A DNA stretch of 64,000 nucleotides from Podarcis pityusensis (taxonomy: Eukaryota), in NCBI GenBank assembly GCA_964106645.2, contig OZ067051.1. One strand, 5' to 3'. The notes under the pieces were generated by a model. The model did no database searches and had not been told where the DNA came from. It saw only the letters and a program-made list of their open reading frames with translations. This document shows positions 992 through 62,458 of this stretch, one piece after another (the stretch's first letter is position 1; the number at the start of each line of letters is the position of its first letter). Both the position numbers and the translations under genes were made by a program.

Positions 992-54487
<53,496 letters not shown>

Positions 54488-55618
54488 ACAGGAAGATAGC
54501 AGGTCAGTCTGGTTCAGCGAGGTCAGACATCCAGCAGAATCAACTCGGCCTCAGGCATCCATAGCAGCACCACAGTCGGTGGTGATGCCTTTCTGGGGCT
54601 TAATGTGAGGAAACCTAGGCAATCTCGGTGCACTGGGAAGTGAGTCCTGCAGAGTAGCTGCACTCAGGGATACGCTAAACACAATGGCCTGGAACCCCCA
54701 GGGTCAAGGGTGAAAGCTCACCGCCTGAACAACACGGCTGTCTTTCTGCTACAGAAGAACTGCAATCGTGTCGGGGGGAAACATAGCTGCAGAAAGGAAA
54801 TTGGGAATGCTACATACCGCAGAGTGATTTGGAACCCAGTTCCACCTGACCCTGTGAACAATCCAGGAGAAACCGAAACCGAAAAAAGGGGGCCGTGAAG
54901 AAATCGCAGCAAAGGAAGATTTGAGAGATTGAGTTTCTTGAGTCGCTCTTGTTGCTTGGCAACAGTGCTGGTTGAGTTGACCAGTTTGTGCAAAAAATGA
55001 ATAAATAAATGCTACATGAGAATGAACTTCAGAAATGGACTGAAAATGCAAAGAGCTGCATGTCAGCTGTGTTGGAAGAACCTCTTTGAGAAGAGAGAGC
55101 CTTTGTGTCTTTTTTTTTTTTTTTTTAAGTTCTTTCCCACTTCTGGTTTATTCTTGTTCTTTAGATGTATTTCTAATATGTTTTTATTTCAATCCTTGTA
55201 ATTTCACTGTTCAGTCAAATTAATCATTTCTTCTTTGTTTTTTGCAAACCAAATTTTCCAAAAGCACAGGGAACGCTGAACATTTAAGCAAATCTTTTGT
55301 GTTGGCTGATCAAACGCAAATGGTTGGAGTTTTGGTTCTTTTAAAGTGGTTTTTTGTGATTCTATCATGTACAGTTTCCCCAAATTCACTGTGCATTTCA
55401 AAGTAATGAATCTAACAGACATTTGGTTTTCATGTGCACCTCCCTCTGCTTGCAGTGTACGCTCCTTTTTGTAGTTCAAACCTTTTCCTCCAAAACACAT
55501 TCTACTGTGATTTTGCTGTAGTTTCTTTTGTAAATGTAGGTACTCCAATGTAATCTTTACCTTAAAAATGATTAGAATATCTAAGTAGACTCTTTTACAT
55601 TGTTGATGACAGAAAATC

Positions 55619-55624
55619 AATAAA
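55619..55624 (+). terminator. Candidate proximal polyadenylation signal AATAAA
   Basis: Hexamer followed by GT/T-rich sequence (GTAGTTTTATGCTGTTTG). Confidence 0.45.
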
Positions 55625-56798
55625 GTCAAGTTCTAGTGGAGGTAGTTTTATGCTGTTTGATTCATTTCAAATTTTGATTTACACTTGTAAATGTATAGTG
55701 TTTCAGTTCAATCTGGGAATTTAAAGATAGACATAAATACAAAGCTAAAGTGGACTATCTCTTTTTGTTCAAGCGAAATTGTACAAAGATTTGTGTGAAG
55801 TTACATTTCCATATGACTTCCAATAGGTGGTGTTCAGTTGTGAATTTCTCAGCAAGTTTTCCTAAACCTACCTTGCACTTTTGAACTATGGGTGTGACAA
55901 AAGTTGCTATTAAAACGGCACTTTAAATCAGTCTGTTTCCATATGTCCTCAGTGTTTTACTTGCCTGCTCACTAAAATCATTACATTAGGAACTTGTTTT
56001 AACTTTGCTTTAGGAAAGAACAGGCTGCTTCTTAACTCAGTTATCACTAATCGGTGTCATGTTTTGATAGGCACCACTTCCAAATTGAACTTGTGGGGCT
56101 ATGTGAACTTATTTAATTTGCTTTGAAAGCTGTTAAATGAGGACAAATCAAATGTTCCCATCACTTCCTCTTTAGTCTCTTAAGGATTTTAAAAACCTTT
56201 CCAACAGTTAATTTTTTTAATTGAGGCAGCCTATTTATCGGAGTTTGAGCTTTGGCCTTTGTTTTGAAGAGTTGCTATCAAATATATATTAAGGTCCAGC
56301 ACAAGAAGAAGCTAATTATTCCAGCGTTTTTATAATGTGGAAAAATTGTTTTGACTTCCTCAGAATATCTGATACAGAAGTGACTTGATACTGGTATCAG
56401 TCTTCCACATAGGCGCTAGCTATCTCACCTTTTAATTACCTGCCCTAGACATGTCATGTGCACTGCCTACATATTTACTAATGCTTGTGAGTAAATGCGT
56501 TCCAACTCAGTACTCTGGAACTTCGCTCTTAGCATTGCAAGAGTGAGAGGTTTGCTTTTCAGTAAAATTCAGTTAAGGCAAAATCCAAGCATTTGGTGAG
56601 TGTACCTTTATTTTCCTTGTACGAAACATCCTTAATGAGCAGTCTGTATCCAAATACGATTGGGATAAGATGGTAACATGTTTTTCTTTCCTTTGGGAAC
56701 CAGGGGTCAGGGCAGGCTGCTGCGCTTGTGATTCATGTATTATTATACCACACTATCCAGAAATGTGTATGGAGACGGGGGTCTTTACTGCATAATGT

Positions 56799-56804
56799 AA
56801 TAAA
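56799..56804 (+). terminator. Distal polyadenylation signal AATAAA
   Basis: Upstream TGTA, hexamer, then ~26 nt to a CA and a downstream TGTGTGG..TTTTCTTT element. Confidence 0.65.
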
Positions 56805-58179
56805 GCTCAAAAATCTATTTGTATTCTTCATTCCCTGTGTGGCATTCTTTTCTTTACTGCAGTAACATTCAAAGTTCTAGATCTCTAACTTGCAGTTAGC
56901 AGTGATCACAGTACCAAGCATGTGTAACCTCTGCAATTGTGGAAAAGGTTACCACCTCTTTCACAGAGGGGAATCAGCACAAGGAATAGATTTGAAAGCT
57001 GCAGCTAGTTGCCTGTCATGCATATAATCCACACAAATGTGTCTGAAGCAAAAGTTATTGTTTCACATTTAAGCAACCATTGTGCAACGACATCTGGAGG
57101 GCACCATGTTATTGGCAGCAAATCGCTGACAGCACAAAGTGGAAAAAATGAAGTGCATACCAAAGCAGGGGCTTCCCATGGTTTGCTTTGACTGAAGCAG
57201 GCAGGGAATATATTTTAGTAGGTTGCTTCTGTGTGTAATGAAACGTTTTTAATATATACTTTGATGCATTTTGAGCATGAGATCTTCAAGGGGATGCACG
57301 GAGAATTAACCACTGCAACATCCTGCAGAATCTAATTGGACGTTATTGTGATAGTTCACATTGATTCATTGGACTTAGGAATTCCTAACCACGCAAGATT
57401 TGCTCCTCTCTGCCGCTCCCCCCCCCCTCCAAATGGGAACATCAGAACCTGCCCCTTTTCATCTTCAGCCTTCACTATATTTGAAACTTCAGTGAGTTAT
57501 TCAGAGGAGTGTTGGAAGCTGTTGGGGGAGAAATGAGTTTAAAATCACCTTTGTTAGGATGTAGGTTTTTGCATTAGTTGGACTCCCAGATAAATGCACC
57601 TAGACTTCGCAGTCTGTCTCCTGCTGTTGTTCAAGCTTGCCCCTTTTATCCAGAAAATGTAGGGCTTTTGAATCAAACAAGTTGAATGTACTATATTATT
57701 CCTGGTCTTTTTTTCTTTTTTTAATTATGGCAATTCAGTTTACCAACATATGGTAGGTTACAGAAGTTGGGAAAGCATAGGTTTAGGATCAAACTAATAT
57801 TCAACACAGAAACAAATGGTAGTATATAAAATATGTGTGTGAGAGAAAGAGAATATTCTGGAAAGGCATTCTAGAGGCTCACCACAACTGCAAGCACTGG
57901 ATGGTTGCTACACCTTTCATTTGTGGGACCCTTCCCTCCCAGCTGTCACCTGGATCTGGCTCCATCACTTCCTTCTCTCTCGCCTGTAGTGGTAAAGACT
58001 ACCAGCCCTTTCCACATCCCTTCTAACTCTCCTCCGATCACTTCCAAACTGCAAGCCTCGTTTGATTCACAAAGGTACTTCCTTTAGTTTGACTCATACA
58101 GGTACTTCCTGCTGGCCTGCTCAGCACCAACACCTCAGGCCCTGGCTCTGCTCCGACTTGCCAAACCCCTTGCTCAGCT

Positions 58180-58320
58180 ATGGAACTCACTGGGTGACCT
58201 CAGGCCAGTCATTGCTTCTTCGCCTGGCCTACCTACCTCACAGGGTTGTTGTAAATAGGGAGAGGGACAACCCACATAGGCCACCTTGAGCTCCTTTGAG
58301 GAAAAATAAGAAATGTAATC
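58180..58320 (+). mobile_element. MIR/CORE-like SINE fragment
   Basis: CTGGGTGACCTCAGGCCAGTCA...CCTACCTCACAGGGTTGTTGT core; weaker similar copy at ~8205-8335. Confidence 0.55.
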
Positions 58321-58479
58321 AGTAATGCATAAAATAGACACTCATGGCAAAGACTCATTTATCCAGCTGGGAAAACCTGTGGGAACAACTCCCACAATCC
58401 CCCCATAAGGGGCCAGTTTGTTTCTATTTGGAAAGGCGCTAAGCAGTCCTTCCCCACCCCACTCCGGAATCCCCTCCAA

Positions 58480-59480
58480 AAACCCGTTAAACGGTTTCTG
58501 CTGCGGGACGTCAAAGGAACAACGCGACGTTTCTCCACCTCACGCGCCCGAAGTCACGACGAGAAGGAGGAGGGCGCTGATTGGTCCAAATTCAAAGGCG
58601 AACGGGCAGGGGGGCAGATGAGAGGGCGCTGGTTAGGGGAGTGAGATGGTCCTTATCCAATGGAAAGCGTCGAGGAGGCGGGATGGGCGGGGCCGCCGAG
58701 CTCATAAAAGGGGAAGGAGGGAGAGGCGGTGAAGGGTTTTTGTTCGCGAGGCCGACGGGGAAGCAGAAAGGAGGTGTCGCTTCGGAAGGGGGGCGTGGCC
58801 TGGAAGGCTAGGCGGAGGAGGCGGGGCTTAACCCGTGACGGTTTGCGAGGGGTGGGAGAGAAGGAGTCTGCAGAAAGCAGCTGTCTGGGCCGCACAAAAT
58901 GGCGGAGGGCGACAATAGGAGCACCAACCAGCTGGTGGGTGAGCGCTGATGCGAAGCACATTGGGTGGGCGGGGGGCGAGTTGAGGCCCTCACTTCCCTC
59001 AAGAAGTGGGAAGGAAGGAAGCGGGGGTGCTTCCTTGGGCTGTATCCTGCGAGGAGCGTCTGCGGAGGGGCGCTTGTTTTTACGCAGGAAGAGGGAGGGG
59101 CTGGCTCTTCTGTGCATGGAGATGCACGTCTTGCAAGGCTGCCATAGCGGCCTCTTCACCCCCACTCCCAGCCCCGCCATTCCTATTCTGCGTTATTTTA
59201 AAGTGGGGTGGGGGTGGGAGGTTTGCGCCATTTGTGTAGCTCTTCCTTTGAGGGGTGGAGGCAGCGAACTGCTTCATAGAGTAGAGGGGGCTGCAAGGGG
59301 CGAAGTGAGGAAACTTCGAAAGTATAACAGGCACACCAAATAATCTTATGGCGCTTTTCAAGACTTAGCTTGCTGCAATGCAGGGGGTTGGGCTGGATGA
59401 CCCTCGGCCCCCTTCCGACGCCACAATTCTGCGATTCTAAGACCCGCAGATTTTTGATGGCAGAAGCTTTTGTGGACTGA
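58480..59480 (+). promoter_or_regulatory. CpG island / ARL6IP1 promoter and start of first intron
   Basis: Sharp rise in GC and CpG. GACGTCA 58507, ATTGG 58580, TTCAAA 58591, CCAAT 58657, GC boxes 58685 and ~58820, YY1-like AAAATGGCGG over the ATG. Confidence 0.85.
58899..58934 (+). CDS. ARL6IP1: ARL6IP1 exon 1 (MAEGDNRSTNQL)
   Basis: Recognised ARL6IP1 N-terminus; Kozak AAAATGG; donor CTG|gtgggt. Confidence 0.93.
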
Positions 59481-61841
59481 AGGCTGCTTCGTCGGATGCA
59501 CGAAGTGGTTGTTTGATGGTGTGTGTATGAATATCTTCTTTCACACACACGTTACCTATCAGTATGTGTATATTTGTATTAACACTCACCTGTGTTTAAA
59601 TAGATATGTGTGTGTGTCTATATTATACACACACATACGGATGGATAATAACATTTAGTGCGTTTGATTAATGGGGTTTTAGCCTGTGAAGCTTCTGCCA
59701 CCATAAGCCTTAAAGGTGCCCCAAGGTTGTTTGTGTGTTGGCTGTATGAAACTGTCCTTCTGGAACTTAAATAACACCCCACGGTCTAGTCATGTTTACT
59801 CAGAATGAAGGCCGGAGTAAATTGGGTTTATTCCAAGGTAAATATGTCACCTCAAATTTCGCCTTTTGAGAGCTGTGGAAGGATCCAAAATCAGGAGAGA
59901 ACCCATTATATTTTGCTGATGCACAAGGTTATAGAAGCTGGCAGAGGCAGCAGTAGTGCTTTGTAGGAACGTGGGATCAGAATTGCAGAGCTGAAAGGCA
60001 AAATAGCCTTCTTACAAATGGGTAGGGATGGAGGCTTTTCTTCCCACCAAATAATACATTAAAAAATATTCTAGGCAAGCCATCTTGAAAAAGATCAGGT
60101 TTCATTTTCCGGTTTCTCCAGTAGGACTCTGCTATGTCATCTTTCTTTGTAGTATTAGAGACACACCTGGCCAGCCTGCTTATTGCTAATAGGAGCAGAA
60201 ATAAGCAGGGTGCTTTGTTTAGGCTGTCAAAGGAGCTGCAGCGCTTCAGGGATAGGTGGTTGAAAGTCAGGTGCACAGCACTGAGCATTGTGGTTGATGA
60301 ACAGAGGAGCACAGATACTGTGTGTGCCTTTTCTTTGAGTTTGAAATGCAGATCATTTGTACGTATCCACAGTGTTATCTGCTACATTTTTCACTATGTC
60401 ATATGCTTAGTATACCCTGCTTTTTGAGTTGAAGACAGTGCACTTGAGTCTCCCCCTGTTTTATAATGGCCCTATGCAGCCACTGAGGCTGTGTGCGCAT
60501 AGATGGCCCAATATAACTTGAGTGAACTTGATGGGAAGGAGAGATTTCAACCCAGGCAGAACAACAGTTTAGTTTGTCTTGTGACTGAATCATTTCAAAG
60601 ACATGAGTTAAGGGTATGTGTGTGTGTGATGGAATATTCACAGATCTAAGCTTCAAGGGAAGAGAGAAATGTTTAGAAACAAAATTTATTGGCTAGAACT
60701 CCCTATATCTTGCTGATCTAGAAGGCCATGTTAGGAAATGGACAGAAATTGAAGAACAGAAATTAGAATTCAAAATAAGGAAGCATTAAACATGCTAGAC
60801 TAGGAGGAGTTTTATACAGTGTGTGTAGACCTCAGTGGCAGGTCTCTCTCCCCCCCCCCCTTCATGGTTCATTATGAAAGTTTCACCTACGTACTATTCA
60901 CAAATCTTCAGTTTATGGTCCTGGGCTGAGACAGCAACCAGTACAAAACACAGCTGTGTAGGATGTCCAAAGTAACAGTTATTCAGAGTTGATTAAAATT
61001 TTGGTAAATCCAATTTTGCACACAGAACCTTGCATAACATTTAACACTGTTAGGATAATAAATAATGTAAAAACAGTTTAATTTCAAATATATATTGCTT
61101 GCAAAAAAAAGAAATTAAATATTTTGTTATATTGAGTTACTTTCTCATGCTGCCCAAGTTCAAGATCATAAGATTTGGGTTCTCCATAAGCCAGATAAAT
61201 TTTATCCTAATATCCAAGCTGGAATCAGAACAAGTCTCAAAATAACGTCCTGGAGCACAGTTTTCACAGAATGGTGCCATAACAATAAATGGCAGGTAGA
61301 ATAGCTCTTTGTTATGAAAAATCCTAACTACTGGATCTAGAGTTATCATTGTGGTTCTAGAAGAGGCTCCCGCTTGAGGAATGTGGGAAAGACAATTTCT
61401 GCCAATTTCCCCTTTCCCCTCTGACCTTAAGGAATCCCCAAACCTCTAGAGCAGCTTTTCATTGGCTGCAGGAGGAAGGAAGAATTGGTGTAAATTGCAT
61501 CCACAACCCTTTTGCTCTAGCCAGAGCATCCTGTTCTGCTCATGGGAACTCTGGATTGAAGTTTCAGTATGTAGAAATATATCCTAGGAATATGGCACTG
61601 TTCTCCTAGTTGGGAGTAACCAGATATTTTGTTGCATGATAGACATAAAGCTTCAAATTAAAAGGACCAGTTAAGAGGATGCAGACATAAAAAACTGAGT
61701 TATATTCTGTAAAGCAAAGTAAGGATAAAGCTGTTATATTGTCTAACATAAGATAGCCTACATGTCCAATGAAGCATATGCATTGTGTAAGCATTTTTCT
61801 GCCTGGGGCAATTACATATGTTAAAATGCTTTTATTCACAG

Positions 61842-61975
61842 GCTGCAGAGACAGCTAGCTTGGAAGAGCAGTTGCAAGGATGGGGTGAAGTGATTCTGGT
61901 GACAGACAAAATCCTTCGTTGGGAAAAACCATGGTTTCCACCTGCTATGATTGCTGTAGTTTCCTTCATCTTTCT
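61842..61975 (+). CDS. ARL6IP1: ARL6IP1 exon 2 (AAETASLEEQLQGWGEV...SFIF)
   Basis: cag|GCT...TCT|gtaagt; peptide matches ARL6IP1. Confidence 0.95.
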
Positions 61976-62458
61976 GTAAGTTATTGGAGAGAATGTTACA
62001 AAAAATAATAATGCTAAAGACAGTTAAGCTAGTAGTTACTTTCCTGAAATTCTCAGTACTGCTCTGCTGTATAAAAAGTACATGGGAAGTTTTATGCAGC
62101 TGGAAAAACAATGCTGCTATAAACAAACCAAATATATGTTCAAACCTGGGGGCATTCCTAGTCATTTTATTTCATAGAAGGGCCTATTAATTGGAAATGA
62201 TAGGGAAGAGCAACAACTTTTTATTCCTTCCAAACTTCCATTTTCTCTCTCCTTCCAACCTACTCTCCCATCGGTGATTATGCCATTGCAGAAACTAAAT
62301 TGAGGCATTATTTCTCAACCACTGGCTATGTTGGCTGGGGCTGATGGGAGTTGGGTACTTCAAAATAAAATTTGGAGGCTACTACTTCTCCACACCTCCT
62401 TTAATCACATTGTTAAATGTTTTGCCGCTAGATAACAACACTTTTCTTGCCCCAACAG

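Follow-up and report, generated by a model that had tools for sequence, protein, structure and literature searches.

[quoted passage not shown] SMG1 mRNA belongs to a list of seven mRNAs, all coding for NMD factors and all with long UTRs, whose levels go up when other NMD factors are knocked down (PMC6680220); in the excerpts of that paper, reporter sufficiency is cited for the UTRs of UPF1, SMG5 and SMG7 and not for that of SMG1. As excerpted, published accounts credit SMG1 feedback to the long UTR alone and cite no SMG1 sub-element. Several general trends have been reported in papers on which we likewise draw in excerpt. Human non-PTC NMD-responsive isoforms have a median of 54% GC in the 200 nt past the stop codon, compared with 44% in non-responsive isoforms; UGA stops are the most NMD-responsive, with UGAC as the most sensitive tetranucleotide, and conservation of the stop exon correlates with instability (PMC13651330). 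UTR sequence rich in GC is enriched for UPF1 (PMC7407380), AU-rich elements in the first 200 nt protect mRNAs from NMD (PMC4408796), and SMG1 is reported to be silenced by miR-125a/b (PMC4966760, citing PMID 23583196).

In the literature that we covered, by titles, openings of abstracts and excerpts, we found no description of a stop-proximal element in SMG1 and no paper that treats SMG1 together with RNA secondary structure or synonymous constraint. The excerpts of PMC3091714, PMC4770240, PMC8555832 and PMC6744440 contain nothing on this element, and neither do those of PMC7285996, in which the position of a miR-32 site is given in a figure only. As described here, a conserved and compact block right at the stop codon offers a defined target for asking what closes the SMG1 feedback loop, the candidate features being UPF1 dwell on GC-rich sequence, miR-125, an RNA fold and a hidden intron.

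The DNA analysed is a stretch of 64,000 nt from Podarcis pityusensis, hereafter the window. Its sequence identifies the gene of interest as SMG1, the kinase of NMD: the penultimate exon (53271–53378) matches residues 3601–3636 of the 3661-aa SMG1 chain 6l53_A (PDB chain match, E = 2e-16). The following features mark the end of this gene and its proximal 3′ UTR.

54410–54487, + strand: last coding exon of SMG1, with the remaining 25 residues and TGA; nucleotide-level (synonymous) constraint relative to the orthologous locus L019

54488–54930, + strand: GC/CpG-rich stop-proximal block of the 3′ UTR, GC 0.519, 14 CpG

54488–54520, + strand: first 33 UTR nt, conserved; 27 of 33 identical to L019 without gaps, and 17 of 18 over 54503–54520

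54663–54670, + strand: CTCAGGGA, an 8mer for what we take to be the miR-125 seed; the only + strand copy in the whole window

55000–55009, + strand: two overlapping AATAAA, a candidate short-UTR poly(A) signal adjoining the 3′ side of the GC-rich block

An earlier note on this DNA had described the first ~440 nt past the stop codon as GC- and CpG-rich and the remainder as AT-richer, and our counts bear this out (GC 0.52 versus 0.35). Specifically, the CpG observed/expected ratio is 0.47 in the block and 0.18–0.29 around it, whereas 54931–56820 has a GC content of 0.354 and 16 CpG (ratio 0.27); in a 100-nt profile, GC declines between about 54900 and 55000. CAG occurs 19 times in the block against 12.6 in shuffles, and CCTG five times against 2.3 (6% of shuffles). 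A paralogue search showed the block to be single-copy in its own genome, the one match being the block itself.

The extent of the UTR was judged from X23, a run of raw RNA reads with the same species label, of which about 6% was sampled (129 reads aligned, no end peak called). Coverage ran from 55135 to about 56800, with a depth of 14.2 in 56661–56769, 1.8 in the following bin and 0 over 57097–58077. Because depth drops across the AATAAA at 56799–56804 (+ strand), we place the length of the SMG1 3′ UTR at about 2.3 kb and regard this distal hexamer as the likely main poly(A) signal; the GC-rich part is then only ~19% of the UTR. Were the AATAAA pair at 55000/55004 used instead, the resulting short isoform would have a UTR that consists almost entirely of the block. 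All X23 reads mismatch the window at 56131, 56225, 56380 and 56660, and X23 therefore stems from another individual or strain. About 2 kb past the SMG1 poly(A) signal lies the CpG-island promoter of the next gene (about 58400–59300; ATG at 58899, + strand), which is presumably ARL6IP1. Between 58170 and 58400, several runs have aligning reads and contigs whose loose ends are unrelated to one another, a pattern like that of an interspersed repeat. Readthrough of the SMG1 stop codon was rejected, as a second stop follows after three codons.

For orthologues, metagenome contigs were scanned with degenerate C-terminal SMG1 codons, every synonymous variant being allowed. The scan gave 23 loci, one of which (L019) was vertebrate-like and alignable to this UTR; the other 22 had no similarity to it, and the corresponding scan of prokaryote genome contigs found 0 loci. 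L019 is distant, its introns being unalignable and its two upstream exons 80% and 86% identical to ours. The last exon differs from it at 2 of 78 nt. Of the 22 synonymous-variable codons of the last exon, 1 differed, compared with 31 of 79 such codons of the two upstream exons (Fisher p = 0.0015), and fourfold sites gave the same picture (1 of 11 versus 20 of 38; p = 0.014). The L019 contig stops at +33, and direct conservation thus comes from one orthologue and 33 UTR bases, whose identity exceeds that of the fourfold sites (18 of 38; binomial p 5e-5).

For the wider block, we turned to exact 31-mers, 43 of which were sampled. Fourteen of 24 listed runs carry all of them, and five runs from three other studies carry 9–12 (21–28%); the remaining runs comprise one with 7% (X20, share 0.07), X21 and X22 with 0.00, and two that were unindexed. 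X20, X21 and X22 carry no weight as evidence. Four of the 24 runs were aligned to 55135–58400 for a distal comparison. There, alignments at ≥ 80% span 379 of 1686 distal UTR bases (22%) in a 13.6-kb contig of X18 and 531 of 1686 (32%) in X15, the aligned pieces being about 90% identical by substitutions and 84–86% with gaps counted; X16, with two pieces of 60 and 39 nt in 3 of 30 bins, was excluded from the arithmetic. Such pieces predict 1–3.5% shared 31-mers (about 0.4–1.5 of 43), compared with the 21–28% found in the block. The latter share would imply, indirectly, a block identity of about 95–96% among relatives, a figure to be read with the proviso that the words overlap and may stem from another organism within the same run.

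Conservation was one of the checks attached to the earlier note: sequence conservation appears to exceed that of the flanks, as seen directly for the last exon plus the first 33 UTR nt in L019 and indirectly, by 31-mers, for the block as a whole. The constraint seems to start within the last coding exon and to disregard the coding/UTR boundary, a feature that the earlier note does not mention, nor does it mention the miR-125 site or the splice-like signals treated below. Given an identity of ~95% together with held synonymous sites, a readout of the sequence itself would fit better than covarying helices. Further downstream, patches at about 55135–55285, 55340–55410, 55512–55718 and 55857–55978 recur in both X15 and X18; one distal conserved patch spans an AATAAA at 55619, and X18 aligns over one more short segment, near 56777 and next to the distal signal. 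Nine non-vertebrate SMG1-like loci (L002, L003, L004, L008, L012, L014, L016, L018 and L023) have mutually similar proximal UTRs with a GC content of about 0.4 and no similarity to this UTR. At most genomic SMG1-like loci the frame opens just upstream of the last 25 codons, which suggests the same position of the last intron.

The central claim of the earlier note was that the 443 nt form a nested multi-stem RNA structure of six helices. All 12 motif positions on which it was built were found where described, 3′ of the SMG1 stop codon, and the six helices do nest without conflict. The block as a whole, however, folds no better than shuffled sequence. Its minimum free energy was −136.6, compared with −135.5 ± 6.5 for dinucleotide shuffles (z = −0.17; 38 of 100 shuffles as good), and trinucleotide shuffles (n = 40) gave z = 0.01. 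Sliding windows agreed with these controls: z-scores below −2 were found in 3 of 39 60-nt windows within the block versus 6 of 190 in the remainder of the UTR, and in 0 of 16 versus 3 of 92 120-nt windows. Perfect helices of ≥ 6, ≥ 7 and ≥ 8 bp numbered 21, 5 and 3, compared with 18.2, 4.5 and 1.2 in 500 shuffles, 29%, 47% and 13% of which reached the observed counts; the best nested total was 76 bp versus 65.8 ± 6.3, a value that 7% of shuffles reach. Helices of ≥ 5 bp were in excess (93 versus 72; reached by 0.6% of dinucleotide and 2% of 200 trinucleotide shuffles). This excess, which accompanies the excess of CAG, is the single measure that favours the structure claim.

Forcing all six helices cost 11.3 kcal/mol above the free ensemble. 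In both species, the last exon plus the first 33 UTR nt folded less stably than its shuffles (z = +1.5 and +0.58), and pairing between last exon and UTR was not favoured over 54410–54930 (z = +0.28). No Rfam covariance model matched the block; a search of 52000–62000 gave four matches at E ≤ 5, all far below the gathering score and none within the block. Collectively, these predictions do not support a large nested RNA fold acting as one working architecture. Just 3′ of the block limit, a hairpin at 54906–54957 (core about 54918–54944) reached z = −2.4 in the 60-nt window 54900–54959 and −2.27 in the 120-nt window 54900–55019, which equals the strongest values inside the block.

To judge the helices one by one, pair probabilities were computed over 24 choices of fold boundary. 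The predicted elements that recurred, in some or all of these folds, are the following.

54568–54584, + strand: predicted hairpin CACCAC-agtcg-GTGGTG, pair probability 0.93 in 12 of the 12 folds that include it, 0.78 by local folding

54588–54797, + strand: predicted competing 8-bp helix of CCTTTCTG (54588) with CAGAAAGG (54790–54797), 0.93–0.94 in 12 of the 12 folds that include it

54688–54867, + strand: predicted outer domain of CCTGGA/TCCAGG and CAGGGTCA/TGACCCTG, a boundary-dependent local fold

54724–54775, + strand: predicted stem-loop closed by CCTG/CGGG, absent from the earlier note, 0.80–0.94 in 24 of 24 folds

The six helices fared unequally. CACCAC/GTGGTG was the sole one robust to the fold boundaries, and at least one perfect hairpin of this type is present in 44% of 1000 shuffles. 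In the full 443-nt ensemble it reached 0.93, with GGTGA/TCACC at 0.19 (0.17–0.33 over the boundary choices) and the remaining four at 0.00. Two helices scarcely form: CTTTCTGC/GCAGAAAG stayed at ≤ 0.01 in 24 of 24 folds, and AGGCAT/ATGCCT at ≤ 0.01 in 12 of 12 folds, with 0.20 by local folding. The outer two are sensitive to the chosen ends of the fold. Of the 12 folds that begin at 54600 or later, 11 gave both CCTGGA/TCCAGG and CAGGGTCA/TGACCCTG probabilities of 0.57–0.99, and the remaining one gave 0.25/0.31; local folding gave 0.92/0.72, compared with ≤ 0.01 in all 12 folds with an earlier start; in whole-region folds, their domain is displaced by the CCTTTCTG/CAGAAAGG helix. Folded in isolation, with ends chosen at its own helices (54685–54870), the domain gave z = −1.40, and 17 of 200 shuffles were as good. 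The CCTG/CGGG stem-loop, which is mutually exclusive with the CTTTCTGC/GCAGAAAG helix, lies in the 60-nt window with the best z-score of the block (−3.01 at 54720–54779, one of 39 windows). Part of the six-helix model may thus exist as a local fold, although none of it is distinguished from base composition by these predictions.

What, then, might the block do? We read it as exposing the SMG1 message to UPF1 and miR-125, because this accords with the feedback on NMD-factor mRNAs, with the GC, UGA and stop-exon trends and with the presence of UPF1 on GC-rich UTRs described above. On this reading, to which we give barely better than an even chance, the block is a linear stop-proximal control region through which SMG1 mRNA stays open to miR-125 and to UPF1-dependent decay, and its predicted hairpins are small ones instead of a single nested fold. 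It has the high GC content of UPF1 targets, 0.535 in the first 200 nt, and follows a UGA stop; against the reading, the tetranucleotide is UGAA and not the most sensitive UGAC. The UPF1 motif CCUG[GA][GA][GA] is not enriched (1 copy versus 0.57 expected from shuffles). The miR-125 8mer, at +176, is the only one in the UTR and arises in 2.4% of shuffles of the block and in 2.7% of those of the whole UTR; folding predicts the site to be mostly paired (unpaired probability 0.014, block median 0.010). A search for miR-125 genes in the same genome gave no signal, but its controls were silent too, and a second search gave 71 matches, below its control, with 0 Rfam hits in 6 of the 71 loci.

As we picture it from the literature, UPF1 would dwell longer after termination on the G/C-rich sequence beside the stop codon, SMG1 would phosphorylate the dwelling UPF1, and the mRNA would be degraded, by which route the kinase would damp its own level. 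miR-125 with Ago at +176 may add a tissue-specific brake. Base pairing in the block, if any, would act as structure of a generic, GC-driven kind and not through a specific architecture. The earlier note had proposed a structured cis-element that may set the NMD sensitivity or translation of SMG1 mRNA. Of this, the distinct, conserved stop-proximal block is supported, and a cis-regulatory role is reasonable because such a block lies in the long 3′ UTR of a reported NMD-target mRNA; the nested multi-stem structure is not supported. Still, an identity of ~95% over hundreds of bases, together with synonymous constraint, exceeds what GC bias or an 8-nt site would require, and something more specific is therefore left unexplained: a linear region accounts neither for the tightness of the constraint nor for its entry into the coding exon, and the weak excess of short helices counts against a purely linear one.

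A conserved specific structure, either the six-helix model or a core of the 54568 hairpin, the 54688–54867 domain and the 54724 stem-loop, could instead set termination or decay. The nesting of the helices, the high probabilities of the outer two in local and downstream-starting folds, the z-score of the isolated domain, the surplus of ≥ 5-bp helices and the conservation of the block all speak for it, and many real structured RNAs show unremarkable folding z-scores. We nevertheless think it unlikely in view of whole-block z-scores near zero, the lack of any 120-nt window below −2, the energetic cost of the six-helix fold, the two helices that form in no global fold, the poor folding of the exon plus 33 nt and the lack of an Rfam family. 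As for a hidden intron, signals resembling splice sites do occur.

54500–54508, + strand: donor-like CAG/GTCAGT (cut at the slash), 8 of 9 consensus positions, 15 nt past the stop

54637–54645, + strand: candidate donor-like GAA/GTGAGT, 7 of 9 consensus positions, 152 nt past the stop

54716–54754, + strand: candidate acceptor-like end, with a branch-like CTCAC (54716–54720), a pyrimidine tract and CAG at 54752–54754 (+267)

The block would then be a minor regulated 3′ UTR intron or an alternative terminal acceptor, which we consider distinctly unlikely. If +152 were joined to +267, an exon junction would come to lie > 50 nt past the stop and would elicit EJC-dependent NMD; use of the donor at +15 would give a shorter UTR, and joining the donor of the upstream exon to the acceptor would replace the last 25 residues by a 47-residue open frame. 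The donor-like sites at 54503 and 54640 and the acceptor-like site at 54754 favour such a role, as do the synonymous constraint on the exon and the fact that GT..AGT at +16 is kept in L019, which reads CAC/GTGAGT at the same offset. An 8/9 donor and such an acceptor ≥ 70 nt apart occur in 1.35% of 2000 shuffles, with criteria set post hoc, and the acceptor is in phase with a 47-codon open frame that runs to 54898. According to the excerpts of PMC13223760, introns that lie wholly within UTRs are short and GC-rich. On the other hand, 14 runs, nine of them guessed to be RNA, carry all 43 block words, and the unspliced form is therefore present; each signal alone is common by chance (16% and 15% of shuffles), and at low RNA depth no spliced joints were seen into acceptors within 55135–58400, a region 3′ of the block. 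The open frame lacks a protein homologue: neither it nor an 84-aa + strand frame found one among proteins of 46–147 aa or, in a weak search, of 84–2000 aa, and the coding potential of both frames was dismissed on this ground.

Constraint that ignores the coding/UTR boundary could also act on the DNA: the block might be an enhancer within an exon, or a cluster of factor-binding sites, that works on SMG1 itself or on the neighbouring CpG-island promoter about 4 kb downstream. The raised CpG ratio of the block and the island at about 58400–59300 would suit this; yet the beginning of the block coincides with the last exon and stop codon, which is an RNA landmark, and the block contains the site for a miRNA that reportedly targets SMG1 mRNA, and we rate this explanation as very unlikely. 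The same low standing belongs to an ordinary 3′ UTR gradient, in which GC and conservation fall with distance from the stop and no element is dedicated except for a few short sites. In vertebrates, proximal UTRs are commonly GC-richer, folding is at chance level and the distal UTR also has conserved patches; against a mere gradient stand the synonymous constraint (p = 0.0015) and the surplus of shared, albeit overlapping, 31-mers. Finally, the last exon and the first ~450 UTR nt might form one conserved autoregulatory switch of ~520 nt, in which competing folds would expose or hide the pyrimidine tract of the cryptic acceptor, and some SMG1 mRNA would gain a junction 152 nt behind the stop or lose its terminal 25 residues and undergo EJC-dependent decay of its own message. 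That tract coincides with the CTTTCTGC arm of the earlier helix model, and 54789–54797 is the partner for which two predicted arms, at 54588 and 54742, are rivals; we hold this combined scheme to be very improbable.

Returning to a linear stop-proximal region exposed to UPF1 and miR-125, its resemblance to known systems is partial in each case. Decay of highly structured UTRs is described as independent of linear sequence; the GC-rich segment of SMG1 can likewise pair extensively, but it comprises a minor part of the UTR, folds like its shuffles and is conserved in sequence. The 3′ UTR introns and ultraconserved AS-NMD elements (PMC13223760) share with it a short, GC-rich, conserved segment with splice-like sites in an RNA-decay gene; SMG1 is not named as a case in the main text of that paper as excerpted, and the SMG1 sites are candidates from sequence. 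The termination-proximal NMD-inhibiting elements of TRAM1, VAMP3, CRIPT and TMED2 (PMC4408796, in excerpt) likewise lie within 200 nt of the stop in long UTRs. They are A/U-rich and protective, whereas the SMG1 block is G/C-rich, and the predicted sign would therefore be opposite.

The reported repression of SMG1 by miR-125a/b (PMC4966760, in excerpt) has its counterpart here in the single 8mer of the UTR for the presumed miR-125 seed, which lies in this block, although 8 nt cannot explain the whole of it. With the autoregulation of UPF1, SMG5 and SMG7 through long 3′ UTRs (PMC6680220), SMG1 shares the rise of its mRNA and the long UTR, but not a described sub-element, none being given for the SMG1 UTR in the excerpts. 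Closest is the class of GC-rich 3′ UTRs subject to EJC-independent UPF1 decay (Imamachi 2017 via PMC7407380; PMC13651330; both in excerpt), which SMG1 resembles in the GC content past its UGA, its long UTR, its conserved stop exon and an mRNA reported as an NMD target. That class is defined by composition, whereas the SMG1 block appears to be conserved base by base, reaching into coding sequence, and is not enriched in CCUG[GA][GA][GA]. We therefore regard the block not as a demonstrated RNA structure but as a further case of conserved, GC-rich, stop-proximal UTR regions.
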